A stretch of 57,861 nt of DNA from Candidatus Omnitrophota bacterium (GCA_041650795.1 JBAZKK010000005.1:1-57861), one strand, 5' to 3'; shown: positions 1 through 17,094, counted from the first letter of the stretch. Numbers and translations: made by a program. The notes: a model not told the origin generated them from the letters alone.

Positions 1-568
1 GACCAGGCAGCGCCGTCGGTAAAACTATGTTCCAGATCGTGCCCCACCTTGTCGCACCTAGTGAAAACGAAGCCTCTCTTACCGACTGGGGGACAGCCAG
101 GAGCGCTTCCTGCGTAGCAGAGATAATCAAAGGCAAAACCAAGATCCCCAGGGTAAGGCTCCCCGAGAGGATCGAAACCCCGAATCCGAAGAATTTCACA
201 AAAACCGCCAGGCCGAAAAGCCCGAACACTACCGAAGGCACGCCTGCTAAATTATTGATGCTTATCCGGATAATATTAACCGCCACCCCTTTAGGGGAAT
301 ACTCGCACAGGTATATTGCACAGGCAAGCCCCAGAGGCAGGGCAAAAATAATTGCCCCCAGTGTCAGGTAAAACGTACCTACTATCGCAGGGGCTATCCC
401 GCCTTCAGTCATCCCCATGCGCGGCCCTTCGGTAATGAATTCCCAAGATATGACCTTTACCCCCCTGGCCGCGATGAAATAAATAATCGAACCTAAAAAG
501 AAAAGGGTAGCCAAGGTGCAAACTGTTAATGTCAAAAATCCCAGATTCTGGATAAGGTTCTTTTTCAT
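1..568 (-). CDS. pstA: Phosphate ABC transporter permease PstA (3' end runs off the left edge)
   Basis: Not in the ORF track because it is truncated. Manual translation from ATG at 568 gives MKKNLIQNLGFLTLTVCTLATLFFLGS...NNLAGVPSVVFGLFG...EALLAVPQSVREASFSLGATRW, a typical PstA EAA loop. It overlaps the pstC stop (ATGA). Confidence 0.93.
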   Translation of the reverse strand, partial: MKKNLIQNLGFLTLTVCTLATLFFLGSIIYFIAARGVKVISWEFITEGPRMGMTEGGIAPAIVGTFYLTLGAIIFALPLGLACAIYLCEYSPKGVAVNIIRISINNLAGVPSVVFGLFGLAVFVKFFGFGVSILSGSLTLGILVLPLIISATQEALLAVPQSVREASFSLGATRWGTIWNIVLPTALPG

Positions 569-1455
569 CCGCTCAACCCCAATTTTATCCTAAACCTCCT
601 GCTGATCGCTTCGGCAATGATATTAAAAACAAAGGTTACCAAAAACAGTATCAGCGCGATTGCAAAGAGCGCGTGGTAATGGTCTCCTCCTACCGGGGCT
701 TCCCCCATTTCCGCCGCAATCGCGGCGGTCATCGGACGTATTGGCTCCAGGTACGAATGCGGTATCACGGCAGCCCCTCCGGCGACCATCAGAACCGTCA
801 TGGTCTCCCCGATAGCACGGCTCATCCCCAAGATTATGGCCGTAGATATTCCTGAACCGGCTGCGGGTATAGTCACCTGGGTCAGGGTCTGCCACCTGTT
901 GGCGCCAACCGCAAATGACGCCTCGCGGAATGTTTTTGGCACGTAATTCAAAGCGTCGTCGGCAATGCTACAGACCGTCGGCGTAGCCATTACTCCCAAA
1001 ACCAGGCTGGCGTTCAAAGCGCAAAGCCCGGTAGGCAAATTAAACAACCTCTGCAGAAAAGGCGTCAGGACGACCATCCCGAAAAACCCATATACTACCG
1101 AGGGAATACTGGCCAGTATTTCAATCAACGGCTTGAGGACCGCCCTCTGCCGGTAGCCAGCCAATTCATGGAGGTATAAGGCGCTGCCTACTCCTAAAGG
1201 CACGCAGACAAATATAGCCCCTACCGTCACCCAGGCCGATGCCAGGATCAAAGGCAGGATGCCGAATTCCGGGGGATTATACGTAGGATACCAGGCCCTG
1301 CCAAAAATAAAATCCTGCGGTTTGACCTTGGCGAATATCGGCAGCCCCTCCTTAAAAAGCACCAGCACAATCCCTACTAAAAATGCCAATGAGGAGAATG
1401 CCAATATCGTAAAAACCCACTTGTATGCCTCTTCTTTTAGCTCTAGCCTGCTCAT
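565..1455 (-). CDS. pstC: Phosphate ABC transporter permease PstC
   Basis: Motifs FIFGRAWYP, FGILPLI, EILASIPSVVYGFFG, REASFAVGANRWQT, SRAIGETM; lies between pstS and pstA. Confidence 0.96.
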   Translation of the reverse strand: MSRLELKEEAYKWVFTILAFSSLAFLVGIVLVLFKEGLPIFAKVKPQDFIFGRAWYPTYNPPEFGILPLILASAWVTVGAIFVCVPLGVGSALYLHELAGYRQRAVLKPLIEILASIPSVVYGFFGMVVLTPFLQRLFNLPTGLCALNASLVLGVMATPTVCSIADDALNYVPKTFREASFAVGANRWQTLTQVTIPAAGSGISTAIILGMSRAIGETMTVLMVAGGAAVIPHSYLEPIRPMTAAIAAEMGEAPVGGDHYHALFAIALILFLVTFVFNIIAEAISRRFRIKLGLSG

Positions 1456-1467
1456 TCTTTAAAAAGT

Positions 1468-1503
1468 AACACTGCAGGGCGAAGTGATTTGCCCTGCAGT
1501 GTT
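1468..1503 (-). terminator. Stem-loop between pstS and pstC (terminator/attenuator or mRNA stabiliser)
   Basis: Perfect 13-bp inverted repeat aacactgcagggc (1468-1480) / gccctgcagtgtt (1491-1503), followed on the minus strand by ACUUUUU just before the pstC ATG. Confidence 0.7.
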
Positions 1504-1531
1504 GTGGAGGTTTGAGTAAACGCTTGATTTT

Positions 1532-2344
1532 TTACTTCAACCCCACAAAACCCTCTTCCTCTACAATCCTCTGGCCGTCAGCGCTCAGGATAAAATCAAT
1601 GAACTCTTTCGCTAAGCCTCGAGGCTCTTTATTGGTATACATAAACAACGGCCTGCCAACAGGATATTTGCCGGAAAGCACGCTCTCCTTGGAAGGTTTG
1701 ATGCCGTTGACATCCAAGGCTTTGACCGAAGATGAAACATATCCTAACCCCACATAGCCAATGGCACCGGGAGTGCTGGAAACGGTCGTAACAACTGCCT
1801 GGTTAGATGCCTGTAACAACGCATCGGACCTGACCTTTTCCTTATCTAAGACCAGTTCCCCGAACGCTTCGAATGTACCGCTGGAGCTGTCGCGGGAGAT
1901 AACCACGATCTTGGCGTTGCCTCCGCCTAACTGGCTCCAATTCGAGACCTTACCGGTATAGATATCCTTGATTTGTTTTTTGCTCAAGGCATTAATACCG
2001 TTAGAAGGGTTCACGATAACGCAGATGCCGTCCATCGCGATAACATTAGCTTTGGGCATCCTGCCGTTGGCTATGGCGTTATCTAACTCGCTCTCCTTGA
2101 TAGGACGCGAGGCATCGGCAATATCGCAGGTACCGTCAATAATGGAAGCGATGCCTACCCCTGAGCCCCCGCCCCGAACCGAAATCTGGGAACCGGGGTT
2201 GTTGTTCATAAATACCTCCGCCGCTTTTTGCGCGATGGGTAATACTGTGGTTGAGCCTGCCACCACGATATTTTCCGCGTAGCATGGCAAAACCAATCCC
2301 AGAACCAATAACCCCAGGATTGCTAACTTACCAAAAACTTTCAT
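1532..2344 (-). CDS. pstS: Phosphate-binding periplasmic protein PstS
   Basis: Motifs AGSTTV, GGGSGVGI, ASRPIK, SRDSSSGTFEAF, YPVGRPLFMY. Start moved to ATG 2344 (MKVFGK..., signal peptide), which follows a GGAGGAGGA RBS. Confidence 0.96.
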   Translation of the reverse strand: MKVFGKLAILGLLVLGLVLPCYAENIVVAGSTTVLPIAQKAAEVFMNNNPGSQISVRGGGSGVGIASIIDGTCDIADASRPIKESELDNAIANGRMPKANVIAMDGICVIVNPSNGINALSKKQIKDIYTGKVSNWSQLGGGNAKIVVISRDSSSGTFEAFGELVLDKEKVRSDALLQASNQAVVTTVSSTPGAIGYVGLGYVSSSVKALDVNGIKPSKESVLSGKYPVGRPLFMYTNKEPRGLAKEFIDFILSADGQRIVEEEGFVGLK

Positions 2345-2420
2345 CTCTCTTCCTCCTCCTTGCATATACACGCCGCACCAGCGCAATTAGCACTTAGCGC
2401 CGGGTGTGTCTTTCTTTTGC

Positions 2421-3701
2421 TTAGAATTTCAAATTCCAATCAACCTGAACTAGGGTTTCCGGAGCCCTCCTCCCGATCAAGCTCCAGGAACGGTAAACAT
2501 CAAGACCCAGGAAGGTATTCTTGCCTAAGCCGTAGTTTAATGCGACCTCATGGCTTCTCATACCCGTCTTTCCGCTGTAACGGTCGGAATCGGGGGTAAC
2601 ATCAAGCACTGCGTCTTTCTCAAGCATCGCGTAGATGTACTTGAGTTGCCAATCCCCGAATTTGGAGATCTTATCGTTACCTAACTGGAAGCCTAATGAA
2701 AAACCTGTATTATTGTCGGAGGTAGCGAGGTTCTCGACGTATTCGCCGAAGAGCTTCATATTCTCGATATCCAACCCCACAGCTTTGAAAGGCTCCTTGA
2801 TGCTAAACTCTAATGCTGGGCTGATAGTGCGGTAATCATACGCCCAGTTGGAGCCATTCTTGGTGTTACTGCTTTTATACCAATCTGCAGTAGGATAAGC
2901 CCTGCCCTTGGTATTGCCGCCGATATTGGCTGTAAAAGCACCCTTCAAGGACATGGAATCATTAAGCTTATAGGTAGCTCCGGGTTGGATGATATACATC
3001 ATCACCGGGTCGTTATCCGAACTGGTATCAGCGGTTTGGACCAATACGCCGGTATTCATAAAAAGGCCGGCATTATCGCCCAGCCCCTTGTTAAACTGGA
3101 GCACGCCTCCTTCAGGCGTGATATCCGTATCCCAGATCAGGTCCGTCGGTTCCCATAGCACATCATTCAAAAGCATCTTGCCGCCGACAATGGTCAACCA
3201 GGGCAAGGCGCTGTATTTGGCGTAGGCATTATCAAGCCGGATCTCCATCTTGGTGGAATAACCATCGCCGCTCCCGCCAAAGGTCATATTCGTGGAGCGC
3301 GGGTCACCGCTGGAGTTAGTGGCAATACCGACACCGACCATAATCTTCTCATTTACCTTTGTTTCTAATCCAAGGCGCATGCGCAACCGTCCGATCTGCG
3401 TATCCTTGGAATAATCGTTTGCTGCCTTCTCGTGCTTATACTGGTACCTTAAACGCAAATCGCCCTTAAGCTTGATATTCTGTACCCAGGCCGGTAAAGA
3501 AGAAAACTTGCCTGCTGCGATTTCCGCCTTCACCTGCTCCTTTGTCTCGGTGCCGATCTGCTGCGCTTCCCCTGCAGTCAAAACCTTCTTTTCAACCAGC
3601 TTTTGAAGCAAAAGGTCGATCTCCCCGGCATAGGAAGAACCTAAACCCAAACCAAAGGTCATAAAACCTGCTAAAGCCGTCATTGCCAAAAACTTTCTCA
3701 T
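2421..3701 (-). CDS. Outer-membrane beta-barrel 'putative porin', probably phosphate-related
   Basis: Signal peptide, N-terminal helical segment (EIDLLLQKLVEKKVLT), LKGDLRLRYQ first strand, alternating aromatic beta-strands, C-terminal ...DWNLKF beta-signal. Sits directly upstream of pstS with a strong RBS. Confidence 0.78.
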   Translation of the reverse strand: MRKFLAMTALAGFMTFGLGLGSSYAGEIDLLLQKLVEKKVLTAGEAQQIGTETKEQVKAEIAAGKFSSLPAWVQNIKLKGDLRLRYQYKHEKAANDYSKDTQIGRLRMRLGLETKVNEKIMVGVGIATNSSGDPRSTNMTFGGSGDGYSTKMEIRLDNAYAKYSALPWLTIVGGKMLLNDVLWEPTDLIWDTDITPEGGVLQFNKGLGDNAGLFMNTGVLVQTADTSSDNDPVMMYIIQPGATYKLNDSMSLKGAFTANIGGNTKGRAYPTADWYKSSNTKNGSNWAYDYRTISPALEFSIKEPFKAVGLDIENMKLFGEYVENLATSDNNTGFSLGFQLGNDKISKFGDWQLKYIYAMLEKDAVLDVTPDSDRYSGKTGMRSHEVALNYGLGKNTFLGLDVYRSWSLIGRRAPETLVQVDWNLKF

Positions 3702-3721: not shown

Positions 3722-3916
3722 TCAGTTATTTGCGTACAACTTCCTGATCTTCCGCAGACTATTCTCTATTTCCTTAAGGGATTCGTGCGCGTAATTACAG
3801 TTGCAGGCGCGCTCCTCCTCCATATTGCTCAATACGCCGCGCAGGCGATTGAGCTGCAAACGTAGATGACTAGTTATAAACTCCTTTCGCATCGAAGACA
3901 TATCGCGTACTTCCAT
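3722..3916 (-). CDS. Small helical hypothetical protein (64 aa), weakly CsoR/RcnR-like
   Basis: TAATG overlap with the upstream regulator and it fills the gap to the porin RBS. The segment RLRGVLSNMEEERAC has the spacing of CsoR-family RG-x5-EE-x-R-x-C. Confidence 0.6.
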   Translation of the reverse strand: MEVRDMSSMRKEFITSHLRLQLNRLRGVLSNMEEERACNCNYAHESLKEIENSLRKIRKLYANN

Positions 3917-4365
3917 TATGCCTGTCTCCTCTGCATCCTTTCCATCACGGGATCAGACTTCACCACAAAATCCTTATGCCTTACCTGAGCCAATTCTTTT
4001 ACAACCCGCATCAGTTCCCCTACGCAAAATGGCTTAGTAATATACTGGTCTGCCCCTAAAAGGTTACCGTAGAGTTTATCCTGTGTTTCGCCCTTGGCCG
4101 TCAAGATAACCACAAAGGTACCGGATGCTTTAGGGTCGTCCTTAATGGCCTTGCAGATACTGAAACCGTCCGGTCCTGGGAGCATAACATCAAGGATAAT
4201 AATATCGAAGTGTCCTTTTTTAAGCTTTTCCTGCGCTTCGTAGCCGTCATAAACGCACTCGGGATAAAAACCGCTCTTAGAAAGGTTGTAGGAAATAAGC
4301 CGGTTAACATCCCTATCATCATCAACCACCATTATTCTTTTTTCTTTTGTAGTCACAGCTTCCAC
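3916..4365 (-). CDS. Stand-alone response-regulator receiver domain (PhoB/OmpR-type receiver, no DNA-binding domain)
   Basis: IMVVDDD, IIILDVMLPGPDG (phospho-Asp), LTAK, YITKPF; only a short C-terminal tail. GTG start with a poor RBS. Confidence 0.88.
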   Translation of the reverse strand: MEAVTTKEKRIMVVDDDRDVNRLISYNLSKSGFYPECVYDGYEAQEKLKKGHFDIIILDVMLPGPDGFSICKAIKDDPKASGTFVVILTAKGETQDKLYGNLLGADQYITKPFCVGELMRVVKELAQVRHKDFVVKSDPVMERMQRRQA

Positions 4366-4520
4366 AGATTCAAACCTGGCCTAGGCGAACTGCCGGTAAA
4401 AATGATTCATAGACTGTATTTCCTCGCCGATAACATCCTCTATGAATCTCGTTATCCGAATTACAATTTTTTTTATAGCATTCCGTGCCCTGTTCAAACC
4501 TTTCTCCTTCTCTCACTTTT

Positions 4521-4574
4521 AGTTTATAAGATCGCTGTTACGAAATCCTTAAAGGACTGTGAACTTTCTGCAAA
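4521..4574 (-). promoter_or_regulatory. Putative Pho-box promoter P2 (upstream of receiver-smallORF-porin-pstSCA)
   Basis: Minus strand TTTGCA gaaag TTCACA gtcct TTAAGG atttc GTAACA gcgatctta TAAACT: four hexamers at 11-bp period, a 9-nt gap, then a -10 element. Confidence 0.75.
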
Positions 4575-4579
4575 CATTC

Positions 4580-5356
4580 TCATATGTCCAGTTTATAGCC
4601 TTCCCCCTTGACCGTAACAATAAGACAGGAGTCATGCTGGTTATCCTCCAATTTCTCCCGAAGATGGCTGATATGGACATCAATATTGCCGTATTCCACT
4701 ACCTTGTCTTCCTCCCAAACCGCATCCAGGATCTCGCTGTGGCTCAATACCCTGCCGGGATTATCAATAAAAAGCTTTAAAATCCCCCTTTCTTTCCGGG
4801 TAAGAAAGACCTCCCGGCCGTTGCGCCTGACAATAAAATCCTCGAGGTCAATCTCCAGCCGGCCGATCCTGGCAATCCTGGGTTTATGATAGCGGCCTTC
4901 AGACCTGGCAAGGACCCTTTTAATCCGCACAATCAATTCCCTCGGGCTAAAAGGCTTGGCGACATAATCATCGGTGCCGAGATCAAAGCCTTTAAGCTTG
5001 TGGTCAATCTTTGAAAGGGCGCTTAACATAATGATGGGGATGTCCCTTGTTAAAGGGTCTTTCTTGAGCTTGCGGCAGACATCCCAACCGTCAATATGCG
5101 GGAGCATGATATCCAAGATAACTAGGTCCGGCTTCTTAGCCCTGCAAGTCTCAATTGCCTCAAGGCCGTCTGCGGCAGAAAGCGCCTCATATCCGGAAAT
5201 AGTAATATGGAATGACAAAAGCCGCACCAGCTCTTTTTCATCGTCAACGATTAAAATCTTCTTTTTTGATATTGACGCGGCTTCCGGTAAAGTTTGCGTA
5301 CTTTCCAGATGAGTATTTATGATTGTCTCCTTTTTTCTTCTAAAACGCTTCTCCAT
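4580..5356 (-). CDS. OmpR/PhoB-family response regulator (second PhoB-like paralog)
   Basis: Receiver (ILIVDDE, LVILDIMLP, LSA, YVAKPFS) plus winged helix (VLSHSEILDAVW, NIDVHISHLREKL, TVKGEGY). Start codon uncertain; about 30-aa N-terminal extension. Confidence 0.92.
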   Translation of the reverse strand: MEKRFRRKKETIINTHLESTQTLPEAASISKKKILIVDDEKELVRLLSFHITISGYEALSAADGLEAIETCRAKKPDLVILDIMLPHIDGWDVCRKLKKDPLTRDIPIIMLSALSKIDHKLKGFDLGTDDYVAKPFSPRELIVRIKRVLARSEGRYHKPRIARIGRLEIDLEDFIVRRNGREVFLTRKERGILKLFIDNPGRVLSHSEILDAVWEEDKVVEYGNIDVHISHLREKLEDNQHDSCLIVTVKGEGYKLDI

Positions 5357-5370
5357 TGTTCTGTAGTAAA

Positions 5371-5424
5371 ATTATAACCGGCCATGGTTACAAAAACATT
5401 GAGATGATGTAAAATCTTTGTGAA
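5371..5424 (-). promoter_or_regulatory. Putative Pho-box promoter P1 (upstream of the PhoB-like paralog)
   Basis: Minus strand TTCACA aagat TTTACA tcatc TCAATG ttttt GTAACC atggccggt TATAAT: same geometry as P2-P4. Confidence 0.75.
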
Positions 5425-5429
5425 CTCTC

Positions 5430-6086
5430 TCAATGCCTCTTCTCTATCGCCATAAATGACCCTCCCAGCGGCAAAGAAGAAAGTTTCCCTTGGAGCAAAG
5501 CGATGACACCCTCTATCTCCTTCTTATCTGCTGTATCCGGCTTCAGGCGAAGATAATTGCGGTAATGCCTGATGGCTCCGGCGACATCATTTTTATACGA
5601 CTCCAGCAGTACCGCCAGATTATACTCTACGCCCGGGTCCTCGGAACCAAACTCCAACGCATCCTGATAGCCCCTTATCGCTTCCTCAAAAAAATTCCCC
5701 TGCAGGTAAGCATCCCCGAGTTTGGCGCTATATTCGGCGCGGGTCTTACGCACTAACCCTTCCAGATACCCCAGTTCTTTTTTGAGTCTTCGGTTTTCCT
5801 CAATTATAGAAAAGGATGACTTGCCGGAGTGGTTGCCGGAAGAGCTATCCGTATCTTTAATATCAGAGATGCATTTCATTTCATAAAAATTCGGGGTGCC
5901 GCGATAATCTATCCCGATATGCTCGCCTGTCTTCTCAACGACATCAGTTCTGACCTGCTTACCAGACTTGCAAAAAGCTGCCTCGGCTGAAGATCTCTGC
6001 GCTAAATACGCTGTTACATATAAAACCGCAACCGCAATTAATTTAATCTCTCGGCTCTTGGTCTTGGGAGGGAATCCCGGCTTCAC
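5430..6086 (-). CDS. Membrane-anchored coiled-coil + TPR protein
   Basis: N-terminal hydrophobic segment (LIAVAVLYVTAYLA), coiled coil (IIEENRRLKKEL), two to three TPRs (KLGDAYLQGNFFEEAIRGYQDAL; VEYNLAVLLE...AIRHYRNYLRLKP). Start overlaps the stop of the upstream 1,507-aa gene by 4 nt. Confidence 0.8.
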   Translation of the reverse strand: MKPGFPPKTKSREIKLIAVAVLYVTAYLAQRSSAEAAFCKSGKQVRTDVVEKTGEHIGIDYRGTPNFYEMKCISDIKDTDSSSGNHSGKSSFSIIEENRRLKKELGYLEGLVRKTRAEYSAKLGDAYLQGNFFEEAIRGYQDALEFGSEDPGVEYNLAVLLESYKNDVAGAIRHYRNYLRLKPDTADKKEIEGVIALLQGKLSSLPLGGSFMAIEKRH

Positions 6087-9000
6087 GACCGTCCGCCGGC
6101 ATCCGGAGATGCTTCTAACAATACAAGTATCTCCCTTAGCTCCGGCTTGGTTACAATTACCATCCTTTCCTCTATCCTCAGGATTTCTGCTACGCCGCTG
6201 CGGACCTTGGCTAATAACTCTCCTCTAAAACGGCTCATCCTGGCAAGCTCGTAACATTCTTTTACCTTTGAGGTTTGCGGCAGGTCTCCTTTCTTGATGA
6301 CCTCCTGCACCTGACTCCAAAGCACCTTAAAATCATTGTCATAGTCCTGGCGCAACGGTGACAAAGGCACTTCTCCTGATACGCCATTGCCGTCGTCCTT
6401 CAGGATGGTTATCGGGAGCGTCCGCAAATCAATCCCCCCCGGTAAAACCGCTCCCCCCTGAAGAGGCGCCCTGCCATCGTGCTGCAAAAAAGGAGGCATC
6501 GTTTCTTTCCCCGATGAAACAGGACCTGCTGTTTCTGCTCCGGGGGCCTTCTGGCCTACCTCTGCCAAAACGGCCCCTATCTTTGACAAACGGTAGAAAT
6601 TCTTATAGCGGTGGCTGGTGGGGTCGTATTTTTTATCCTTAATAAGAAAGCCTTCTCCTGTTACCATCTCCAGATCACGGTAGACCGTAGAATAAGAAGG
6701 CTGGATTTCGTATTCATCAACGGCAGAATATAATTGCTCTAAGGTATCCCGTATTGTAAATTCGGCATGGTTTTGTCCACTAAAAAAATCCCGAAGCATA
6801 AAGCGTCTCTTTGGGGCGTCAAATGTCGTCCTGGGTTTGCGTGTTAAAGAATGCTGATGCCGCAAGACAGCAACTCCGACCAGCTTGCCTTCTTCTCGAA
6901 AAACGCTGGGTTCGGTATATAAGCTTCCCAACCCATTCTTCAATAATTGACGGGCATAGCTGGTACCATCTAGCCTTACATACAGCGATCCGGGTTGATA
7001 AGGTATTAAGGTATTCATCTTAAGATTCTCGAGATTGCTATCCTTGGCCTTGCTGGAAAAATGTGGCCAGTATATATCAAACAACCCGTCAAAAAAATCC
7101 CATTCTTCTTTTGATCCCAGCTTCTGCGTCTCCAGGAAACGGTGTATATCCTTGCCCTCTCCGTTGGCAAGCATAATCAACGGCACTAAAAGATGCGTGG
7201 TAAGGCTGACCTGGAAACCGGAGTCGGCATGCTCTGCCAGGTATCCCTTAAGACGCGAAAGAAGCGACATGAAGCTTTGATAACGCCCGCTGTCATCAAT
7301 GCTTATTGCCATCCCTCCCCCAAAAACGGACATCTGTCTTCTCTCCTGGTTGCGCCAATCAAACAAAAACGACGAAAGGTAACGGGGGGCAAACTTATCC
7401 TTGACCTTCTGAGCCCCAACATGCTGGAATAGCTTCACGAGATGGTTAGCGGCCCCCTTCTTCTTGCGCCCGTTGCTATTGCCGTTAGTAACGAGTAAAC
7501 CCAAGTCCTGTTTCTCCATCTGTTCGCTGCCGACCCAACTGCCGAACAACTCTATATCGCCCAATATCCTGCTTTCCAGTAAAGCTTTCTTATCGGCAAT
7601 AGAACATTTGTGCGCGAACTCCGCTGCAATGCCGTTCCTGTTCTTATCCTGCAAGGCCTGGGTAACCTGGTAACCGCTGATAAGCGCCAATTCCAAGGGG
7701 GTGAGGGAACGCCCCAAGCCGGGGACCTCCGGCAGAGGCAATGGGTTAAGCGCGGTATCAACATCCCGCCCCCTCCCCAATAATACGATAGCCCTCCTGA
7801 ACCTCTGCGCCTCCAGCATCCCTTCAATGAACGATGATGCGCTTCCCTTAGTATCAGCCCTGATGCAGACGATGGAGACATCATCGCGCAATAAAGTTCC
7901 TTTGATACTATCCAGGAACCTGCGCATCTTCTCCTTTTGGTCGCTAACCACGATCACCGCCTCTGCGCTGGCAGCTTCTAAACGGAGCTCTTTGGAAAGC
8001 GACTCCAACGAATTCAGGTAAGCGTCATTCAAGGCCTTGTCCTTTAAGCCACCGGATAAGGAAGGCGCAATAGCGTTTAATTCCTTTTTTAATTTCGATA
8101 TCCTGAAAATGTTTCTATTGTGGGGGGTATCCTTCTTGCCGGTTACCTGCAGGGCATACCAAGAAAAAACCAACGGCACCAGCCCTGATAAAGACTTCGT
8201 CAACCCTAAAACCGCCTGCCCCCGCGCTGCCTGGTCAGCGGCAGCCAGGACAGAGGCAATGCCGTTAATTATAGTCCCCGGCAATGAGATTAAAAGCACT
8301 ACCGCAATAAAAGGGCTGAGCATCTCGCGGAACCAGATCCAGCCCTTCCTTGCCCCCAGCCTTACCTTCTTTCCGTGATAACAATCCTCAACCCAATTAT
8401 CCCAATCTTCAATAACGCGGTCTGCTATGCCGCTGTCTTCGCTATAGAGATTATCAATCCGGTTGCCCAGGGGGATAATCTTTCCCGTCAGCTGCTCACG
8501 CAACCTCCGGGTGGAATCTTTGAAATTACGGTTGAAACCGAATACCGCCCCTACAATAGCGGCCAGCATCCTGCCAGCCAGTGTCCTGCGGTCAAAACGG
8601 TCCCCTGAGGACATCGGTATATTCTCCACGGCGTGGAGCGTATGCTGGCATTCGTCAAGATATTCAATCATCAAAAGGAAGTCCTCCGCGTAGATTTTCA
8701 GCTGGCGCCGATTGGAACTATCAGCGGCAACGCGGATTTCAGCCATAAGGCTCTCAAGCGCCGTATATAGCTGTGAAATGGCCTCCCCGTATATCTCATA
8801 ATATTTCGTGCGGTGTTCGGTAACAAACCCGGCCTCAAAAGGCAGCATCGCCGTCAATTTTCTCGCCTTATCAAGACAAACAAGATAACCCGCGCTGCTC
8901 TCTGGGGCCTCCGCGACAGCGGATTTTAGCTCTTGCAATACCGCACTTACCGAATATTCCCAATTGTTTCTACTCTCTTGATTGTTGGTTCTTTGTGGAT

Positions 9001-10606
9001 GTGGGCGTCGGGTTACAACGCGGTCTACATGTTTTGCCGAACGGTATATCCACTTATGCGCTCCCGCGGTATTACGGGAGTCCTTCTTATCTTTAACCCA
9101 GCGAAATAGCGAATAAATGCCCAGGATTGAGATAAAAATCGCCGTTGCCGACAGCCCGGGATACCTCTGGATGGTATTGGACAAAAATGCGCCGGCATTG
9201 CCTGCCAGCTGTCCGAACTGCTGGAAAAGCCGGTCAATAGAGAAACCCTGCAGTTGCCCTTGCGCAGCTGCGGATAAGCGGGCACCGAGAGAAGGTGCCG
9301 GAGTGGCGGTTGCAGGAGCGTGGGAAAAAGTAGTTAATCCCGGAGTGAAAGGACGAGACGGTAAAGGGGTAGAAACAGGGGCGCCTGTATGACTGATGGT
9401 TGAGGAAACCGTCTTACCTATATTATTATCGTTAACTATAACTCTGTCTCCCCTAAACTCAATACCCAATGCCGGGTCGCCAGAAATAACGGGAATTAAA
9501 GGCCGGCCTCCGATGATAGTTACTGAACCCTCAGTAACGCTCGTACCTGGTTTTGGGGAAGCCGGCATTGATAGGCCTAAAGAGATGCCGCCAAAAAAAT
9601 AATTCCTTACGGCCTGGCCTTCCAGACCGAAAACTACCTCTGAACTGTTATATTCCCCGCGCTGGTATGATTTCCTGTATTCCTTGAAGTAATACTTCTT
9701 GTCCCATGGCCTTTGCGACCTTAACCCTGCCAGGCAGCGCGTATCAATGAATTCCGAATGCCTGACAAAGGTACCCCTGAAACGGCTTTTAAACCACTGG
9801 GCAAGGATGAAAGAATAATACAACTGGCGCAAGGCCGCGTATCTGTCTGAGGTATTAACCGCCTTCACTAACTGGGGCATTATTCTGGCATTGAATAACG
9901 ATAAGGCAAAATCGTTGAACCTCTTAACACGGATGTCATCGTAGTAATAATTTTGATTAAGGTATTCGTTTTCGTTCAGAACATTAAGCGTGGCTTTATA
10001 GATATAGGCGCTTTGCCCAGACTCACGGATAATGATTTCCCCGGGGACTATCCACACCCTCATAGAAACAGGGGCATCCGACCCCACCCCCCCGAATATC
10101 TCACCCGCCTTGCGGTATAATGCCTGCCAATACTGTTTCCCCGAATCGGTATACGGCGATGTAAGCCGGCCTAGCTCACTCTTGAGTTCCAGATCCGCCG
10201 CTAACATTATCCTGCCCGCATCGGTCTTGGCCATGTCGCTATCAAGCATCTGGTCTTCGGCATCCGGCCTCAGATTGACCCAATATGAATTATTAGGAAG
10301 GCTGACTGCGATGAGGAAGAACCTCAATAGTTCAGCGGCCTGGTCCCTGGCATTATCCTTATCGTTACCGCGATAATCCCCGCTGTCAACTAAGAGGCGC
10401 AAAATGTCTGAGGTTCTCTCGTAAGCAAGAGACCTTAGGTGCGGTTGGTATGCTACCAGGGGCGGGGGGAACATCGCGTTTTCAAATCCCTGTACGGATG
10501 CCCCCTGTTCGAACAAGAAAGAAAAACACAAGAGTAGCGCTACTACCTTGCGCATTGCGACAACTATGCCTGAAGTATTGGGATAACCGATGGTTTTTTT
10601 ATCCAT
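6083..10606 (-). CDS. Large (about 1,490-1,507 aa) exported/membrane protein of unknown function with N-terminal WVNLRP domain and C-terminal GGIDL motif
   Basis: Long ORF. Probable start ATG 10555 (MRKVVALLLCFSFLFEQ, signal-like). Contains a globular domain (FFLIAVSLPNNSYWVNLRPD...TDAGRIMLAADLELK), a P/T/S-rich linker, several hydrophobic helices, an internal winged-helix-like segment (SYSTVYRDLEMV) and PGGIDLRTLPI followed by a helical tail. Confidence 0.85.
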   Translation of the reverse strand: MDKKTIGYPNTSGIVVAMRKVVALLLCFSFLFEQGASVQGFENAMFPPPLVAYQPHLRSLAYERTSDILRLLVDSGDYRGNDKDNARDQAAELLRFFLIAVSLPNNSYWVNLRPDAEDQMLDSDMAKTDAGRIMLAADLELKSELGRLTSPYTDSGKQYWQALYRKAGEIFGGVGSDAPVSMRVWIVPGEIIIRESGQSAYIYKATLNVLNENEYLNQNYYYDDIRVKRFNDFALSLFNARIMPQLVKAVNTSDRYAALRQLYYSFILAQWFKSRFRGTFVRHSEFIDTRCLAGLRSQRPWDKKYYFKEYRKSYQRGEYNSSEVVFGLEGQAVRNYFFGGISLGLSMPASPKPGTSVTEGSVTIIGGRPLIPVISGDPALGIEFRGDRVIVNDNNIGKTVSSTISHTGAPVSTPLPSRPFTPGLTTFSHAPATATPAPSLGARLSAAAQGQLQGFSIDRLFQQFGQLAGNAGAFLSNTIQRYPGLSATAIFISILGIYSLFRWVKDKKDSRNTAGAHKWIYRSAKHVDRVVTRRPHPQRTNNQESRNNWEYSVSAVLQELKSAVAEAPESSAGYLVCLDKARKLTAMLPFEAGFVTEHRTKYYEIYGEAISQLYTALESLMAEIRVAADSSNRRQLKIYAEDFLLMIEYLDECQHTLHAVENIPMSSGDRFDRRTLAGRMLAAIVGAVFGFNRNFKDSTRRLREQLTGKIIPLGNRIDNLYSEDSGIADRVIEDWDNWVEDCYHGKKVRLGARKGWIWFREMLSPFIAVVLLISLPGTIINGIASVLAAADQAARGQAVLGLTKSLSGLVPLVFSWYALQVTGKKDTPHNRNIFRISKLKKELNAIAPSLSGGLKDKALNDAYLNSLESLSKELRLEAASAEAVIVVSDQKEKMRRFLDSIKGTLLRDDVSIVCIRADTKGSASSFIEGMLEAQRFRRAIVLLGRGRDVDTALNPLPLPEVPGLGRSLTPLELALISGYQVTQALQDKNRNGIAAEFAHKCSIADKKALLESRILGDIELFGSWVGSEQMEKQDLGLLVTNGNSNGRKKKGAANHLVKLFQHVGAQKVKDKFAPRYLSSFLFDWRNQERRQMSVFGGGMAISIDDSGRYQSFMSLLSRLKGYLAEHADSGFQVSLTTHLLVPLIMLANGEGKDIHRFLETQKLGSKEEWDFFDGLFDIYWPHFSSKAKDSNLENLKMNTLIPYQPGSLYVRLDGTSYARQLLKNGLGSLYTEPSVFREEGKLVGVAVLRHQHSLTRKPRTTFDAPKRRFMLRDFFSGQNHAEFTIRDTLEQLYSAVDEYEIQPSYSTVYRDLEMVTGEGFLIKDKKYDPTSHRYKNFYRLSKIGAVLAEVGQKAPGAETAGPVSSGKETMPPFLQHDGRAPLQGGAVLPGGIDLRTLPITILKDDGNGVSGEVPLSPLRQDYDNDFKVLWSQVQEVIKKGDLPQTSKVKECYELARMSRFRGELLAKVRSGVAEILRIEERMVIVTKPELREILVLLEASPDAGGRS

Positions 10607-10785
10607 GCCTGCTACTCTATCGCTTCAAAACATTCAAGGAAGCTATGCCTTGATGACAACTCTTGCTCCTTTGAGGACCTCGGACAAATCTGCCGGCCGC
10701 TAAAATTTAGGGCGGCATGCCAGAGAGCCAAATGGTGCGGCTGCTTAAAAGGCAGGCGGATATTCCCGGCAATCCCAAGGGCGCC

Positions 10786-11043
10786 CTATTTTGATGCGGC
10801 CGCCAAACCAGTGATTGGCCCGAGAGAATCCGGGAATTCCCTCCCTTGTGGCTGCGGGAATTCCCTTCTCCGTTTGATCTTCGCCATTTCCACCAAGGAG
10901 TTCCAAAGCCATACCTGCTTTTCTTGAAAATCCAGCTCAACCATCCAATCGTTGAAGAGAAGACGGCATAGTTCTCTCATTTCAACGCTTTCCTCCTCAA
11001 CGCTCCTGCTATTGCCTGTTATCATTACTGATTCTGGCAGCAT
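10786..11043 (-). CDS. Hypothetical protein (85 aa)
   Basis: Strong RBS GGAGGTGGAAG-ATG; first ORF downstream of putative promoter P3; no recognisable family. Confidence 0.55.
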   Translation of the reverse strand: MLPESVMITGNSRSVEEESVEMRELCRLLFNDWMVELDFQEKQVWLWNSLVEMAKIKRRREFPQPQGREFPDSLGPITGLAAASK

Positions 11044-11096
11044 CTTCCACCTCCGTGGCTTTAAGGGGTTAATGCAATCGTGCTCAACGCAAACAA

Positions 11097-11150
11097 AGTA
11101 TAAACTACGGCGGCTAAAAAATCCTTAAGGGAATGTAAAATCTCTGCAAC
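11097..11150 (-). promoter_or_regulatory. Putative Pho-box promoter P3 (upstream of 85-aa ORF / 1,507-aa gene / TPR)
   Basis: Minus strand GTTGCA gagat TTTACA ttccc TTAAGG atttt TTAGCC gccgtagtt TATACT: close to P2 in sequence and identical in spacing. Confidence 0.72.
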
Positions 11151-11204
11151 TTATTTTTGGGTCGGATGTTAACTCGGAGAATAAAACGAAGGGTGCGGCT
11201 GGTT

Positions 11205-12977
11205 TTACGCTAAGGGGATAGTGAAGCTAAAGGTTGAGCCCTGCTCAAGCTCGGACCTCACCCAAACCTGTCCGCCATGGGCCTGAACAATATGTTTTAC
11301 AATCGAAAGCCCGAGGCCTGTCCCGCCCAGTTCGTGGGAACGGGCCTTGTCCACACGGTAAAACCTCTCGAAGATCCTGGGGAGGTCTTTTTCAGAAATT
11401 CCTATCCCGGTATCGCTAACGTCAACCTGCAGGACATCATTGACTACCTTGGCAGCAATTGAGACCGTGCCGCCTTCCGGGGTATATTTAATGGCGTTAT
11501 CCAAGAGATTAATCATAACCTGGGAAAAACGCGTCTCATCGGCTTTTACCTTCGGAAGCCCCGAAGGAAGCTCGGTATTTAATGCGATAGATTTTGCCTC
11601 GGCCTGATTCTCTATTACGGTTGCGGCGCGCCTGATAAGCACCGTTGGGTCAAGCGGGGCAAAAGACATCTTCATCTTACCGGATTCTATTTTAGACAAA
11701 TCCAGGAGATCATTAATGAGGCTGGCAAGGCGGTTACTATTCTGATGGATAATGTTTACAAATTCCCTGGCATTTTCTTTGTCTTCCAGCGCCCCTTCTA
11801 ATAAAGTCTCGGCATATCCTTTGATGCTGGCGATAGGGGTACGCAATTCATGGGAAACATTTGCGACAAAATCCTGCCTTATCTTTTCCAGCCGCCTGAG
11901 CTCAGTGATATCGTGAAAGACTAGGATTGCCCCTTCAAGTTTATCATTACGAATAATGGGAACGCCGTTTACCTTCAGTATCTTTTCCTCCGGGATGCCG
12001 ACCGGGATCTCTTTGGTAGCGAGGCGTTGTTTGTCCTTCAATATCTTATCTGCCAGATCCTTGACTGCGATGTTCCTGATTATCTCCAGGAGCTTCTTTC
12101 CATATGGGTCGCCATCAACCAAAAAGAGCTTCCTTAAGGAGGGGTTCATTAAAATAATCTCTTCGCTCTCATTGATGACAATCACCCCTTCAAACATGCT
12201 TGACAACACCAGCCCTAACCTTGCCTTCTCGGCATTTATCTTTTCGATCTTATCCTTTATCTCCTCGGACATGCGGTTTAAGGACCGCGCCAATTGGCCT
12301 ATTTCATCTTGCGAATAAGCCGGGGCCTTTTTAGAAAAATCCCCTCTGGCCATTGCCCGGGCGATACCCGCCATTTCCGTGAGCGGCCGGGATAACGATA
12401 TAGAAACCAGGAATGTCAAGCCCAGGCTTAAAAACAATATTCCGGCGGCGCCTATTCCAACCGTCTTACGCATCTTTGCCTCGAGGGATTCTATCTCGCT
12501 CAGGGCAACCGCAAATCTCAATACGCCTTTGGCCCTGCCTTTACCGAAAGGAACGGCAATATAAAGCATATTTTTTCTGATGGTATAACTAAAACGGAGG
12601 CTCTCCCCAAACCCCTTGTTAAATGCATCCCGGACCTCAGGCCTGTTGGAATGGTTCTCTACCGCAGCCAACCTCTCCTTGGTGATATCCGTATCACCCA
12701 GAACTCTGCCATCGGAAGAAATAACGGTTACCCTTAAATTAAGGGTCTTGCCCGTTTCAGAAGCAAAAACTTGAAAATCAACCGGAGAAAGCGGGTTATT
12801 TAAAGACGCCTCCAGAAAATCCCGCCCCAGGAAAAGTTGACGCTTGATATTATTGCGGAGGTTATTTTCTATGTAGGAGTTCAGATGGACAATATAGTAA
12901 AGGTAGCCCGCCGAAATTGCCAGGACGGCTATAACGCAAAAAACAAGGACCAGTTTCCAATGTAGCTTAATCCGCAT
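11205..12977 (-). CDS. phoR: Phosphate regulon sensor histidine kinase PhoR (TM-dCache-like periplasmic domain-TM-HAMP-PAS-HisKA-HATPase)
   Basis: H-box DFVANVSHELRTPIASIKGYAETL, NLLDNAIKY, DTGIG, FERFYRVDKARS, GGTGLGLSIVKHIV. Start moved to ATG 12977, which overlaps the phoB 3' end. Confidence 0.92.
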   Translation of the reverse strand: MRIKLHWKLVLVFCVIAVLAISAGYLYYIVHLNSYIENNLRNNIKRQLFLGRDFLEASLNNPLSPVDFQVFASETGKTLNLRVTVISSDGRVLGDTDITKERLAAVENHSNRPEVRDAFNKGFGESLRFSYTIRKNMLYIAVPFGKGRAKGVLRFAVALSEIESLEAKMRKTVGIGAAGILFLSLGLTFLVSISLSRPLTEMAGIARAMARGDFSKKAPAYSQDEIGQLARSLNRMSEEIKDKIEKINAEKARLGLVLSSMFEGVIVINESEEIILMNPSLRKLFLVDGDPYGKKLLEIIRNIAVKDLADKILKDKQRLATKEIPVGIPEEKILKVNGVPIIRNDKLEGAILVFHDITELRRLEKIRQDFVANVSHELRTPIASIKGYAETLLEGALEDKENAREFVNIIHQNSNRLASLINDLLDLSKIESGKMKMSFAPLDPTVLIRRAATVIENQAEAKSIALNTELPSGLPKVKADETRFSQVMINLLDNAIKYTPEGGTVSIAAKVVNDVLQVDVSDTGIGISEKDLPRIFERFYRVDKARSHELGGTGLGLSIVKHIVQAHGGQVWVRSELEQGSTFSFTIPLA

Positions 12978-13662
12978 CGTCCTCCTCGAATCTATACCCC
13001 AGACCGCGGATTGTTTCAATCGCCCTGCCTAACCTGCCGAGCTTTTCTCTCAAGCGTTTGATATGGGTATCAACGGTACGGGTATAAATATCGGCATTTA
13101 TATCCCAGACGTCAGAAAGCAGCCTCTCACGAGACTGCACCCGTCCTGCCCGTTCAATTAGAATAACCAATAGCTTAAATTCTATCGGGGTAAGCTCAAT
13201 CTCATTATTGCCCACGGTAACTTTATGCTTCGGCACATCAATGACTAGGCCGCCTCTCTTAATGGTATCTTTTGCGGCCTCCTCGGGTTTGCCTCTTCTT
13301 AAAATCGCCTTAATACGCAAAATAAGCTCCCTGGCGCTGAAAGGCTTTACCATATAATCATCCGCGCCAAGCTCAAGGCCAACAACCCTATCAACCTCTT
13401 CTCCTTTGGCGGTAAGCATAATAATAGGGGTGTTTTTAAGTTTGTCGCTTTGCTTTATGAGACGGCAGGTCTCAAAGCCGTCCATCTTAGGCAACATGAT
13501 ATCCAACACTACGAGGTCCGTCTTCTGCTTTGCTAAAATTCCAAGCGCATCCTCGCCATTATCAGAGATAAAACACTTATAGCCGTTCTTTTCCAAGTTG
13601 TACTGCAGCAATTTTGAAATATGCCTGTCGTCTTCAACTATCAATATTTTCTCTTTCGACAT
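12967..13662 (-). CDS. phoB: Phosphate regulon response regulator PhoB/PhoP
   Basis: Receiver plus winged helix with TRTVDTHIKRLREKL and IETIRGLGYRF; coupled to phoR. Start moved to ATG 13662 (MSKEKILIVEDD). Confidence 0.9.
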   Translation of the reverse strand: MSKEKILIVEDDRHISKLLQYNLEKNGYKCFISDNGEDALGILAKQKTDLVVLDIMLPKMDGFETCRLIKQSDKLKNTPIIMLTAKGEEVDRVVGLELGADDYMVKPFSARELILRIKAILRRGKPEEAAKDTIKRGGLVIDVPKHKVTVGNNEIELTPIEFKLLVILIERAGRVQSRERLLSDVWDINADIYTRTVDTHIKRLREKLGRLGRAIETIRGLGYRFEEDDAD

Positions 13663-14350
13663 CGTAACCTCTACCTTTTCTATTCTCTCCGCGGCAGACA
13701 TTTACGCAGACCCCACAGATATACTGGTCCGTTAAACGCTGCTTCTGGAAACTTTTAAGCTTCTCAAAACAGAGAAGATGGTCAAACGAGGCGCTGTCTT
13801 CCTTTATTGCGCCTGCCGGACATATTTTAACACAAAGCAGGCACTTCCCGCAGTCTTTTCTTAAAGGGCTATCTGCCTCCAGAGGCATATCGGTAAGGAT
13901 GGAGACGAGGCGCAGCTGGCTTCCGAATGAGGGATTAACCAAGAGATTATTCCTGCCTACCCAACCTAATCCTGCCAGATAGCCGATTCTCTTATGCGAA
14001 AGGTGCCCCTTCTGGTTCTGCCAGTCTAATATCTGGGAGGCAGGAACCGGAAGCGCACGGTAACCCTTGCGTTGAATGTAATTGCAGGTTCGAAGAGCTG
14101 CTTGGTCAAGAAAGGCATTGACAGTGCGGTAATGATGGAAATAAATCCGAGTGGGCGCATTCTCAATATCAGAGAGTATTGCCGAGGACAACCTCGCCCC
14201 CAGCGATACCCCTCTTTTGAGGCCGGCCAGGGAACGTTTTGAAAGCGCGAAGTCTTGCTTTACCCCGGAGATATCGGCGACCCCAAAGAGGTCCACCCCC
14301 ATATCGAGGCAGAAATCTTTAAGGGCGCTGTAGTTTTTGCCTTTGCTCAT
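13634..14350 (-). CDS. Epoxyqueuosine-reductase-like (QueG/COG1600-type) 4Fe-4S protein
   Basis: LSHKRIGYLAGLGWVGRNNLLVNPSFGSQLRLVSILTD followed by CxxCxxCxxxCP and a C-terminal CxxCxxxC. True QueG activity cannot be established from sequence alone. Confidence 0.75.
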   Translation of the reverse strand: MSKGKNYSALKDFCLDMGVDLFGVADISGVKQDFALSKRSLAGLKRGVSLGARLSSAILSDIENAPTRIYFHHYRTVNAFLDQAALRTCNYIQRKGYRALPVPASQILDWQNQKGHLSHKRIGYLAGLGWVGRNNLLVNPSFGSQLRLVSILTDMPLEADSPLRKDCGKCLLCVKICPAGAIKEDSASFDHLLCFEKLKSFQKQRLTDQYICGVCVNVCRGENRKGRGYDVERENIDS

Positions 14351-16238: not shown

Positions 16239-16991
16239 TTAAGGCTTGACTTCTATTTTCTGAAGAAATCTTTCGGTTTTTATTATACCATTGCGGTCGG
16301 AGTTTTTCTGGAATATTTTTTTTGCTACCAGGAGACTTTCACGCGCCTCTTGATACTTGCCGGTATTATAATAAGCCTGGGCAAGAAGAAGGTAGGCATC
16401 AGCATCCTCCGGGTGAAGTTTTAAAGCGGCGAAAAGATAGGCTATGGCTTTTTGAAAATCCGTAAGCGCAAAGTATATCGCGCCAAGGTTATAATTGATA
16501 TCGGGGTCTTTGGGGTTAAGCTCCCATGCCTTTTCCAAAGAAACAGCCGCGTCTTGATAATTCCCCTTCCTCATGTCGCGGAATCCCTTAAAAAGGTATA
16601 CGGCACACTGCTTGCTGATGGAGCCATTCTTTACTCCTTCCAGGACCCCCAAGGCGCCGTTGATATCGGCAAGCTCATCGTTAAATTCTCTTTGGGCCTC
16701 CTCAAAATTTCCTCCCGCGGCTAAATCCATTCCTTTTTCGAAACCGGAGGCTGAAAGACCCGCCTCATTCGTTTCGCCGCTTGAAAAAGCAGAATTATCT
16801 TCAGCAATACTCTTTATGTACTTGTTCTCGAAATAGACCTCGCTGCTGTTGTATTTTATTTTTAGATAATCCGGCGTTCTTTCTATTATCTTGCCTTGTA
16901 TCTCTTTGCCGGATTTAAGCACAACGGTATCCGCTAAAGCGGTATTGAAGAAAAAAACGGCGAACATTGACACCCAAAAGATTTTTCTCAT
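16239..16991 (-). CDS. Exported TPR protein
   Basis: Signal peptide (MRKIFWVSMFAVFFFNTALA), small beta domain (DTVVLKSGKEIQGKII), about four TPRs (YNLGAIYF..., YLLLAQAYYNTGKYQEA). Confidence 0.82.
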   Translation of the reverse strand: MRKIFWVSMFAVFFFNTALADTVVLKSGKEIQGKIIERTPDYLKIKYNSSEVYFENKYIKSIAEDNSAFSSGETNEAGLSASGFEKGMDLAAGGNFEEAQREFNDELADINGALGVLEGVKNGSISKQCAVYLFKGFRDMRKGNYQDAAVSLEKAWELNPKDPDINYNLGAIYFALTDFQKAIAYLFAALKLHPEDADAYLLLAQAYYNTGKYQEARESLLVAKKIFQKNSDRNGIIKTERFLQKIEVKP

Positions 16992-17040: not shown

Positions 17041-17094
17041 AAAATACTGCGTTTTTGTAACATAATCTTTAAGAAAATGCAAACTTTTCGCAAA
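17041..17094 (-). promoter_or_regulatory. Putative Pho-box promoter P4 (upstream of TPR-mnmG-queG-like-phoB-phoR)
   Basis: Minus strand TTTGCG aaaag TTTGCA ttttc TTAAAG attat GTTACA aaaacgcag TATTTT: same spacing as P1-P3. The -10 is weaker and the first hexamer overlaps the upstream terminator U-tract. Confidence 0.6.

Follow-up and report, generated by a model that had tools for sequence, protein, structure and literature searches.

Omnitrophota are abundant and almost entirely uncultured bacteria, in which thousands of signal-bearing proteins with cytoplasm-type enzymes are found; to our knowledge, the destination and purpose of these proteins are known to nobody. The present work concerns a stretch of 57,861 nucleotides (the window) from a Candidatus Omnitrophota bacterium (GCA_041650795.1 JBAZKK010000005.1:1-57861; genome of 1.19 Mb, 85% complete), and in particular a 1,507-residue open reading frame (ORF), here named BIG, which lies between phoBR and pst. 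As delineated by sequence comparison, BIG belongs to a "frame family" in which a fixed signal-like segment, a head and a tail bracket exchangeable cargo, and both this family and the Pho-linked subfamily to which BIG belongs are undescribed relative to published knowledge. The reading that we favour, and hold to be reasonably probable, is that BIG is a phosphate-regulon member of this large Omnitrophota family, acting through the mechanism set out below; its identity, its family membership and its regulatory context are well supported, while its biochemical role is proposed with low confidence.

Gene order and operators at the phoBR-pst locus

Every gene of the region is carried by the minus strand (Table 1). 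The phoB-type and phoR-type genes, presumed to encode the regulators of the locus, are separated by a 161-nt intergenic region from orf85, which is followed by BIG and by TPR218, whose GTG start overlaps the BIG stop within a 4-nt GTGA and whose product matches Pfam TPR_11 at 30.5 bits (cut-off 26.8). The ribosome-binding site of the BIG start is poor, and translation may in truth begin at M18 (10555). A first-pass annotation of the window had described a promoter (P3), an 85-aa ORF, a 1,507-aa gene and a coupled TPR gene with a 4-nt overlap, all of which are indeed present; its gene order was right as described, with the omission of RR258, REC149 and the porin gene between the TPR gene and pstS, and the conservation of orf85 had escaped it. 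It is of note that three receiver proteins (PhoB244, RR258 and REC149) accompany one PhoR-type kinase, RR258 and REC149 each lying behind an operator of its own.

Table 1. Features of the locus, with positions counted from the first nucleotide of the window
Feature	Position	Strand	Description	Basis or score
Operator D	17056-17096	-	upstream of TPR250, then mnmG, 4Fe-4S protein, phoBR	27.2 bits
TPR250	16239-16991	-	250 aa; followed by mnmG, 4Fe-4S protein and phoB-phoR, same strand	
phoB-type regulator (PhoB244)	12967-13701	-		Pfam
phoR-type kinase	11205-13019	-		Pfam
Operator A	11112-11152	-	upstream of orf85-BIG-TPR218	32.5 bits
orf85	10786-11043	-	85 aa	strong ribosome-binding site, GGAGGTG
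Spacer orf85-BIG	10607-10785	-	179 nt	
BIG	6083-10606	-	1,507 aa, head/tail frame family	
Signal-like segment of BIG	10487-10555	-	MRKVVALLLCFSFLFEQGASVQG	conserved across 36 aligned heads
Head domain (WVNLRP) of BIG	9572-10471	-	residues ~46-345, mixed alpha/beta	
P/T/S-rich linker of BIG	9161-9571	-	residues ~346-482, variable in length	
Membrane module of BIG	8138-9160	-		hydropathy, K/R flank counts, orthologue conservation
Sugar-nucleotidyltransferase-like domain of BIG	6872-7969	-	residues ~880-1245	predicted fold
Winged helix of BIG	6584-6817	-	H-H-H-beta-beta	AF2 secondary structure, pLDDT ~75
Tail module of BIG	6086-6445	-	GGIDL and about four helices, ~110 aa	
TPR218	5430-6086	-	218 aa, TPR partner, N-terminal hydrophobic segment	
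Operator B	5386-5426	-	upstream of RR258	30.8 bits
RR258	4580-5356	-	second OmpR/PhoB-type regulator, with DNA-binding domain	
Operator C	4536-4576	-	upstream of REC149-porin-pstSCA	39.6 bits, the genome's best
REC149	3916-4365	-	receiver-only protein	
Porin	2421-3701	-	Porin_5	
pstSCA (pstS, pstC, pstA)	2-2386	-	reaching the contig end	

A word-indexed protein search gave only 3 orthologues of BIG, and a genome search with residues 521-1348 against 201 genomes of the order was used instead; it yielded close orthologues (43-46% identity) in four genomes and distant ones (23-30%) in six. In all nine genomes with a readable context, a BIG-type gene (23-46% identity) lies at the phoBR/porin/pst locus. 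The order of genome G177, PhoR-BIG-TPR-RR-REC-porin-PstSCA, is that of the window; G111 carries PhoB-PhoR-BIG-TPR-RR-porin-PstSCA, and G102, G128 and G187 carry PhoB-PhoR-REC-BIG-porin-PstSCA, while a TPR-BIG pair lies between two pst operons in G036, G069 and G071 and BIG is followed by a TPR gene in G052. The TPR genes downstream of BIG in G177 and G052 are orthologues of TPR218, and another TPR type, whose window orthologue is TPR250, accompanies BIG in G036, G069, G071 and G111. Two genomes display an empty site: G044, with PhoB-PhoR-(operator)-RR-(operator)-REC-porin-PstSCAB-PhoU, and G117, of the same genus as the window, with PhoBR-REC-porin-PstSCAB-PhoU and neither BIG nor RR258 nor the operator. 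These empty sites support the insertion of the BIG unit between phoBR and pst that the first-pass annotation had proposed, the unit bringing its own operator.

The operators were located with a weight matrix derived solely from 9 sites in other genomes, in order to avoid circularity, and the 1.19-Mb genome was scanned with it in full on both strands. No more than 4 genomic positions score above 12 bits, all of them within the window, on the coding strand and each upstream of genes. The maximum in five shuffled genomes is 12.1 bits, and the score of operator A, the site of P3, thus lies far beyond chance. Operator A is composed of four hexamers (degenerate GTTGCA, TTTACA, TTAAGG and TTAGCC) with an 11-bp period and no -35 box, and a -10 box, TATACT, lies 9 nt downstream, at 11097-11102; three window promoters have in common TT(C/T)ACA-like hexamers every 11 bp that end 9-10 bp before the -10 box, and the lineage consensus reads TTCACA-N5-TTCACA-N5-TTAAGG-N5-GTAACN. 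A matching operator stands upstream of the BIG unit (BIG or its leading TPR gene) in G177, G111, G052, G036 and G069, relatives in which the same pattern also precedes RR, REC and porin genes; matching sites precede the REC/porin genes that head pst units in G177, G111, G044, G102, G128 and G187, and the operator is conserved across at least six genera.

A four-repeat architecture is that of PhoB/PhoP boxes, and the PhoP-type boxes of Bacillus subtilis consist of TT(A/T/C)ACA repeats. The operators resemble such promoters in their four direct hexamers with a 10-11 bp period, which replace the -35 box and are followed 9-10 bp downstream by a good -10 box, and in their placement before pstS/porin genes and beside phoBR, with autoregulatory copies; they differ in their lineage-specific consensus, in having two candidate regulators, and in the tiny size of the regulon (four sites), which in addition includes a protein family without known counterpart in model organisms. 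Since one operator lies at the pst promoter, "Pho box" is the parsimonious reading, and the comparative evidence strongly suggests Pho-type control of BIG, with either of the two DNA-binding regulators, PhoB244 or RR258, as the candidate binder. The position of operator D suggests that phoBR could be autoregulated from its promoter. A literature search for an Omnitrophota Pho regulon found none.

The presence of a second regulator evokes the question of whether the operator answers to RR258, or to some other signal, rather than to PhoB and phosphate, in which case the sites would define a separate envelope regulon beside pst. One kinase common to three receiver proteins at the locus, the operator copy that RR258 itself possesses, and the simultaneous lack of RR258 and operator in G117 would all agree with such an arrangement; however, the top-scoring operator precedes porin-pstSCA here and matching sites head pst units in relatives, the adjacency to phoBR is conserved, and the repeats have PhoB/PhoP-box architecture, so that we hold a regulon separate from phosphate to be very unlikely.

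Between operator A and BIG lies orf85, which, judging from its homologues (~60 aa) in 8 of 150 other family genomes searched and their core motif, C..LF.EW..DL..EEK.VWLWN, is a real conserved small protein; it has no Pfam match. Genes of the orf85 family have a conserved leader, AGCCACGGAGGTG, right before the start codon across genera (L024-L028), and the window copy carries a non-conserved C-terminal extension of ~25 aa. Homologues elsewhere are mostly unlinked to BIG. In G052, an orf85 homologue adjoins BIG divergently, with two back-to-back operators, one for each gene, and in G177 the operator stands directly before BIG with no orf85 in between.

In the spacer between orf85 and BIG, where the first-pass annotation had considered a terminator, the matrix recognises no operator, and neither a sigma-70-like promoter nor a convincing terminator is present. 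The sole terminator-like element of the spacer is a 6-bp hairpin with 3 G-C pairs and a short T-tract at 10634-10653; terminator-like matches are common by chance (30 found vs 17 expected), the fold of the spacer RNA is no better than shuffles (z = 0.25), and a terminator was rejected on the weakness of the hairpin and this z value. Read-through into BIG-TPR218 is thus the most economical reading, and orf85, BIG and TPR218 would form one transcript. If, on the other hand, operator A drove orf85 only, BIG-TPR218 would be constitutive or expressed from an unrecognised spacer promoter, and BIG would not be Pho-controlled here. The independence of orf85 homologues elsewhere, the separate operators of orf85 and BIG in G052, the hairpin and T-tract and the poor ribosome-binding site of BIG could be taken in this sense, but the spacer has neither an operator nor a promoter-like site, the hairpin is of a kind frequently met by chance, and an operator precedes the BIG unit in every orthologue examined; an operator restricted to orf85 therefore appears highly improbable.

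The frame family: signal, head and tail

The signal-like start of BIG, the WVNLRP head, the P/T/S linker, the hydrophobic helices and the GGIDL tail had all been recognised in the first-pass annotation, and all are present. From M18, BIG begins with MRKVVALLLCFSFLFEQ, and the family signal consensus, LLCFxLLFEQSGFAQ, occurs here in the variant LLCFSFLFEQGASVQ, for which cleavage and export are predictions. The head (residues 46-345), placed directly behind the N-terminal hydrophobic segment, retrieves 7,186 clusters at E<=1e-3 in a phmmer search (clusters at 50% identity), 1,902 of them at E<=1e-30, and is nearly always located at residues ~50-345, in proteins of 469-7,391 aa. The best 150 matches have 44-52% identity, and an alignment of 36 heads contains 39 invariant columns, with the motifs WVNLRPD ... 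YFxGGI. The AF2 model of residues 18-400, made with these 36 aligned heads, reaches a pTM of 0.71 and a pLDDT of ~90 at model residues 40-320. Foldseek found no relative of this model (best E = 0.31 in PDB and 0.1 among the predicted viral structures of BFVD; NheA and MakB, at a probability of 0.02, were disregarded), and the head matches nothing in Pfam or NCBIfam. The analysis thus brings to light a domain of 300 residues that occurs in over 7,000 protein clusters and for which no Pfam model and no structural relative was found.

The tail (the last 132 residues, 1376-1507, in a local phmmer search) forms the extreme C-terminus in 112 of the 154 proteins retrieved; G1390-G1391-I1392 is invariant among orthologues, the family form being GGID[LF]. 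A profile of the tail has no match in Pfam, and against PDB sequences it gives weak matches only, to designed armadillo/PPR consensus repeats, which hint at a helical-repeat character, compatible with a small helical protein-binding module, and are not taken as homology. The idea that the tail is a partial head repeat, as in strand donation or head-to-tail polymerisation, was rejected, hhalign pairing only a 10-column GGI motif (probability 0.8%).

As a whole protein, BIG has no match in Pfam, NCBIfam or PDB sequences, and the relatives returned by the word-indexed search are Omnitrophota proteins annotated as "phosphoglycerate kinase", "SAM-dependent methyltransferase" and an enoyl-CoA hydratase/acyl-CoA synthetase fusion. 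These align to BIG over its first ~350 residues only, plus the last ~120 in two cases, and the cargo in relatives comprises phosphoglycerate kinase, methyltransferase, enoyl-CoA hydratase/acyl-CoA synthetase and phosphoglucomutase (PGM) domains. The first-pass annotation is thereby borne out in proposing a recurrence of the terminal domains among Omnitrophota proteins, and is wrong in describing BIG as an "orphan", given the 7,186 related clusters and the clear orthologues. The count per genome, which this annotation had called for, is 1-21 copies in 45 of the 61 genomes of the same taxonomic family (range 0-21).

The window genome has two frame-family copies, the second of which (C49:1129-3237; L002) carries signal, head and linker followed by a phosphoglucomutase/phosphomannomutase domain I (PF02878, E = 3.6e-17) and is cut by a contig end. 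This second copy has no operator, and Pho control therefore appears to be a trait of the BIG subfamily only, not of the whole frame family. The phosphate control suggested by the first-pass annotation accordingly holds in that the promoter is of Pho-box type, common to BIG and to pst/porin and conserved in relatives, but it does not extend to the family; similarly, the Pho boxes and downstream TPR genes that it proposed to look for in other members occur among the BIG-type relatives and not, as regards the operator, in the second member of the genome. A separate observation concerns protein P0006 (858 aa, high G+C), whose head lies near the C-terminus before a transmembrane (TM) anchor, with GGVDF motifs flanking the head; its composition is unlike that of Omnitrophota, and the head domain may thus occur outside the phylum.

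Cargo and predicted membrane topology of BIG

The cargo of BIG begins after a linker that is far longer and repeat-rich in the G177 and G052 orthologues. The membrane module consists of TM1 (483-503), a conserved helical region (504-760) with the motifs HAVENIPxSSGDRFD and IIPLGNxLDNLY, and a TM2/TM3 hairpin (762-822, with helices at ~762-785 and ~805-822); orthologues share the TM helix followed by a K/R-rich flank, the hairpin with K/R-rich outer flanks, and then a soluble domain of ~370 aa and the tail.

Within this soluble part, an AF2 model of residues 840-1345 (pLDDT 76.4, pTM 0.71) gives, in Foldseek, NDP-sugar pyrophosphorylases at all ranks from 1 to 37 (E 5e-5 to 1e-3, probability ~1.0), among them GMPPA/GMPPB (7d72), inositol-1-phosphate cytidylyltransferase (IPCT, 4jd0), VTC1, ADP-glucose pyrophosphorylase, HddC and eIF2B. 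Model and matches thus display the alpha/beta fold of the NDP-sugar-transferase type. The window protein has none of the motifs expected of a catalyst: GRGRD stands in place of the GxGTR loop, LPLP in place of PKPL (with the Lys of PK), FAHK in place of GD (with its Asp) and FQHV in place of EK(P/A). In the window protein, hhalign pairs VLLGRGRD...LPLPEVPGLGRSLTP with LILAAGYATRL...PKPLLSVAGRPIID of the genome's own nucleotidyltransferase, and distant BIG-type paralogues retain the GD and EK motifs as F(G/A)D and YEKAD. Proof of homology at the sequence level was sought and not obtained, Pfam, NCBIfam, the PDB-sequence profile and hhalign all being non-significant; the fold and the motif remnants remain. 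On this model, the domain probably descends from a sugar-nucleotidyltransferase and would be non-catalytic in this clade. Neither this nucleotidyltransferase-like fold nor the winged helix that follows was recognised by the first-pass annotation.

The NTP_transferase family (PF00483) is known to have non-catalytic paralogues, such as GMPPA and eIF2B gamma/epsilon. The domain of BIG resembles the sugar-1-phosphate nucleotidyltransferases of this family at the fold level and in the GD and EK motifs kept by distant paralogues, and it is unlike the PF00483 enzymes in having no significant sequence match and replaced catalytic residues in its clade, and in being fused to TM helices, a winged helix, head and tail. 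The fold nevertheless evokes the possibility that BIG is an active membrane-bound sugar-nucleotide enzyme, which would make or remodel a phosphate-free envelope polymer or glycolipid when phosphate is low, much as the PhoP-controlled teichuronic acid (tua) genes do in Bacillus subtilis. Such a role could be accommodated by the pyrophosphorylase matches, by the retention of GD and EK(A)D in distant paralogues at the same pho/pst position, by the location of the domain after the membrane module, and by the sugar-phosphate enzymes that other family members carry. It is unlikely, however, in view of the replacement of key residues in the window clade (Asp to His, Glu-Lys to Gln-His, and the Lys of PK to Leu), of a glycine-rich GxGTR loop that is conserved in no member, and of the missing match to Pfam NTP_transferase, which the true NTP-transferases of the same genome reach with up to 175 bits.

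The distant BIG-like proteins of G102 (L073), G128 (L074) and G187 (L075), which occupy the same pho/pst position, contain two nucleotidyltransferase-like copies that keep GD and EK, and have no GGID tail. In G102 and G187 the protein is fused to a TPR-like region of ~300 aa, which is a separate ORF in G128; this fusion was not used as a Rosetta-stone argument for BIG and TPR218, because the TPR type differs from that of TPR218 and because these proteins have no tail. For the winged helix the Pfam matches are weak, with FUR at E = 0.0024 and PadR at E = 0.0095, neither of which reaches its cut-off; the domain is found in some orthologues only, being absent in G036, G069 and G111.

Regarding topology, the signal-like start is predicted to place the head outside the cytoplasm, and by the positive-inside rule residues ~504-760 and 823-1507, including the GGIDL tail, are predicted to be cytoplasmic, since TM1 and TM3 are followed, and TM2 is preceded, by K/R-rich flanks. 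More than half of BIG, including its tail, would then lie in the cytoplasm, so that BIG is not simply an exported or surface protein; of the lineage-specific exported family put forward in the first-pass annotation, the lineage-specific character of the head/tail family stands and simple export does not. The same annotation suggested a role in host or prey interaction, in which BIG would be an exported or surface protein switched on at low phosphate to obtain phosphate from a partner cell. Features that could speak for this role are a signal-like N-terminus conserved family-wide, a head predicted to be extracytoplasmic, a P/T/S linker resembling surface stalks, the small genome (1.19 Mb), and the published link between large Omnitrophota proteins and predation (West-Roberts et al. 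2023, bioRxiv 10.1101/2023.11.21.568195). They are countered by the K/R-rich flanks that would keep ~504-760 and 823-1507 inside the cell, by searches of BIG against Pfam, NCBIfam and PDB sequences that found no adhesin, hydrolase or toxin domain, by same-genus genomes without a BIG gene, and by the lack of any sign of a partner cell, and a function in host or prey interaction is in consequence distinctly unlikely.

A proposed mechanism and its relation to known systems

The mechanism that we favour can be outlined as follows. Upon phosphate limitation, PhoR would phosphorylate a PhoB-type regulator, PhoB244 or RR258, which would bind the four-hexamer operators seen before orf85-BIG-TPR218, RR258, REC-porin-pstSCA and TPR250-phoBR. 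orf85, BIG and TPR218 would be expressed from a single transcript, with the GTGA overlap allowing translational coupling of BIG and TPR218. BIG would reside in the inner membrane, its head periplasmic and its helical region, nucleotidyltransferase-like domain, winged helix and tail cytoplasmic. The loss of motifs (Asp of GD to His, EK to QH, PK to LP) that are kept in distant paralogues suggests that the nucleotidyltransferase-like domain could be a nucleotide or sugar-nucleotide binding or scaffolding module, not an enzyme. Together with its secreted TPR partner, BIG would then make up a complex of the envelope through which the cell surface or the uptake apparatus is adjusted when phosphate is scarce.

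Several observations weigh against this scheme. With respect to control, G117, of the same genus, which has a divergent PhoBR and no RR258, has no such operator; in G177 and G052 an operator immediately precedes BIG itself, and here orf85 and 179 nt, with the weak hairpin at 10634-10653, separate the operator from BIG. With respect to the cargo, the nucleotidyltransferase assignment is fold-only, with TM-scores of 0.2-0.48 and ~10% identity; the domain has no Pfam or NCBIfam match (E<=0.1) and none in a PDB sequence profile search, and its hhalign comparison with the genome's own NTP-transferase is not significant (probability 1.3%). With respect to topology, one hydrophobic segment lies between the head and the cytoplasm-flanked helix here and 2-4 in orthologues, so that their parity differs and counting TM segments, which was attempted and abandoned for this reason, does not settle the orientation. 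Finally, family members without TM helices must hold head and tail on the same side, which conflicts with the topology predicted for BIG, and this puzzle is the main unexplained point.

A tentative generalisation, possible though rather doubtful, is that the head and the GGID[LF] tail are the two handles of an undescribed phylum-wide Omnitrophota system for sorting or assembling enzyme cargo, of which BIG would be the first member to combine a regulatory input that can be read (phosphate) with topology markers of its own. Should the predicted topology hold, recognition of the tail would take place within the cell, where the tail would serve as a module for targeting or chaperone docking, either ahead of export or in its absence, and many "exported glycolytic enzyme" members of the family would need to be re-interpreted. 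With its TM helices between head and tail, BIG provides a natural construct by which each module could be assigned to the side of the membrane where it works. Being placed behind a Pho-type promoter, BIG also gives the frame family its first clear regulatory context: one subfamily is tied to a testable signal, phosphate limitation, through an operator unique to four genomic promoters, and the locus offers both a condition under which to seek the protein and a compact regulon of about a dozen genes, in addition to a lineage-specific Pho-box consensus.

The combination of conserved terminal modules, variable cargo and many paralogues per genome is reminiscent of polymorphic toxins, of the C-terminal-domain cargo of the T9SS and of cellulosomal dockerin enzymes. 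It differs from these systems in that both ends are fixed and the cargo is of the housekeeping-metabolism type, not toxins or glycosidases, in that the head fold has no known relative and in that the tail is helical, not a beta-sandwich; no cognate machinery was identified. Within the phylum, two preprints describe multi-enzyme and giant Omnitrophota proteins that combine signal peptides and/or TM helices with "cytoplasmic-type" enzyme domains, including sugar-metabolism cargo (bioRxiv 10.1101/2023.11.21.568195; 10.64898/2026.06.07.730766). The giant "Archaeovorin"/dockerin-type proteins reported in the first of them carry HEAT repeats, glycosyltransferase or dockerin/cohesin domains and C39/S8 peptidases (10.1101/2023.11.21.568195); BIG, in contrast, has only 1,507 aa, and a Pfam scan found in it none of the domains listed there. 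Term searches of 10.1101/2023.11.21.568195 and of the 2026 preprint 10.64898/2026.06.07.730766 found no shared head domain or GGID[LF] tail, no nucleotidyltransferase-like membrane subfamily and no link to phosphate regulation.

The history of the locus itself also deserves mention. PhoR and PhoB of the window have 40% and 50% identity to those of the same-genus G117 (L067) and 70-81% to those of other genera (G044, L066; G177, L020), and the nearest counterparts of MnmG (88%), the 4Fe-4S protein (92%) and the porin (86%) are those of the same-genus genome. From this mosaic of identities, the phoBR-BIG-TPR-RR258 block looks as if it had been exchanged by recombination or transfer within the family.

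Small ORFs accompany several of the genes described above. A 38-aa ORF, LNRARNAIKKIVIRITRFIEDVIGEEIQSMNHFYRQFA (4381-4497, minus strand), preceded by a good ribosome-binding site, lies in the long leader that separates operator C from REC149. G111 and G177 have similar small ORFs in the equivalent position (...EE...MD.FY.QFA), and the 38-aa ORF could encode a leader peptide or small protein that is conserved and belongs to the Pho regulon. A 64-aa ORF between REC149 and the porin gene (3722-3916, minus strand) contains CCCTTAAGGA, which is present in operator A too, and has no operator score. In G177 (L020 6058-6303), BIG and the TPR gene are separated by a small hydrophobic ORF (~2 TM helices), which has no counterpart in the window.

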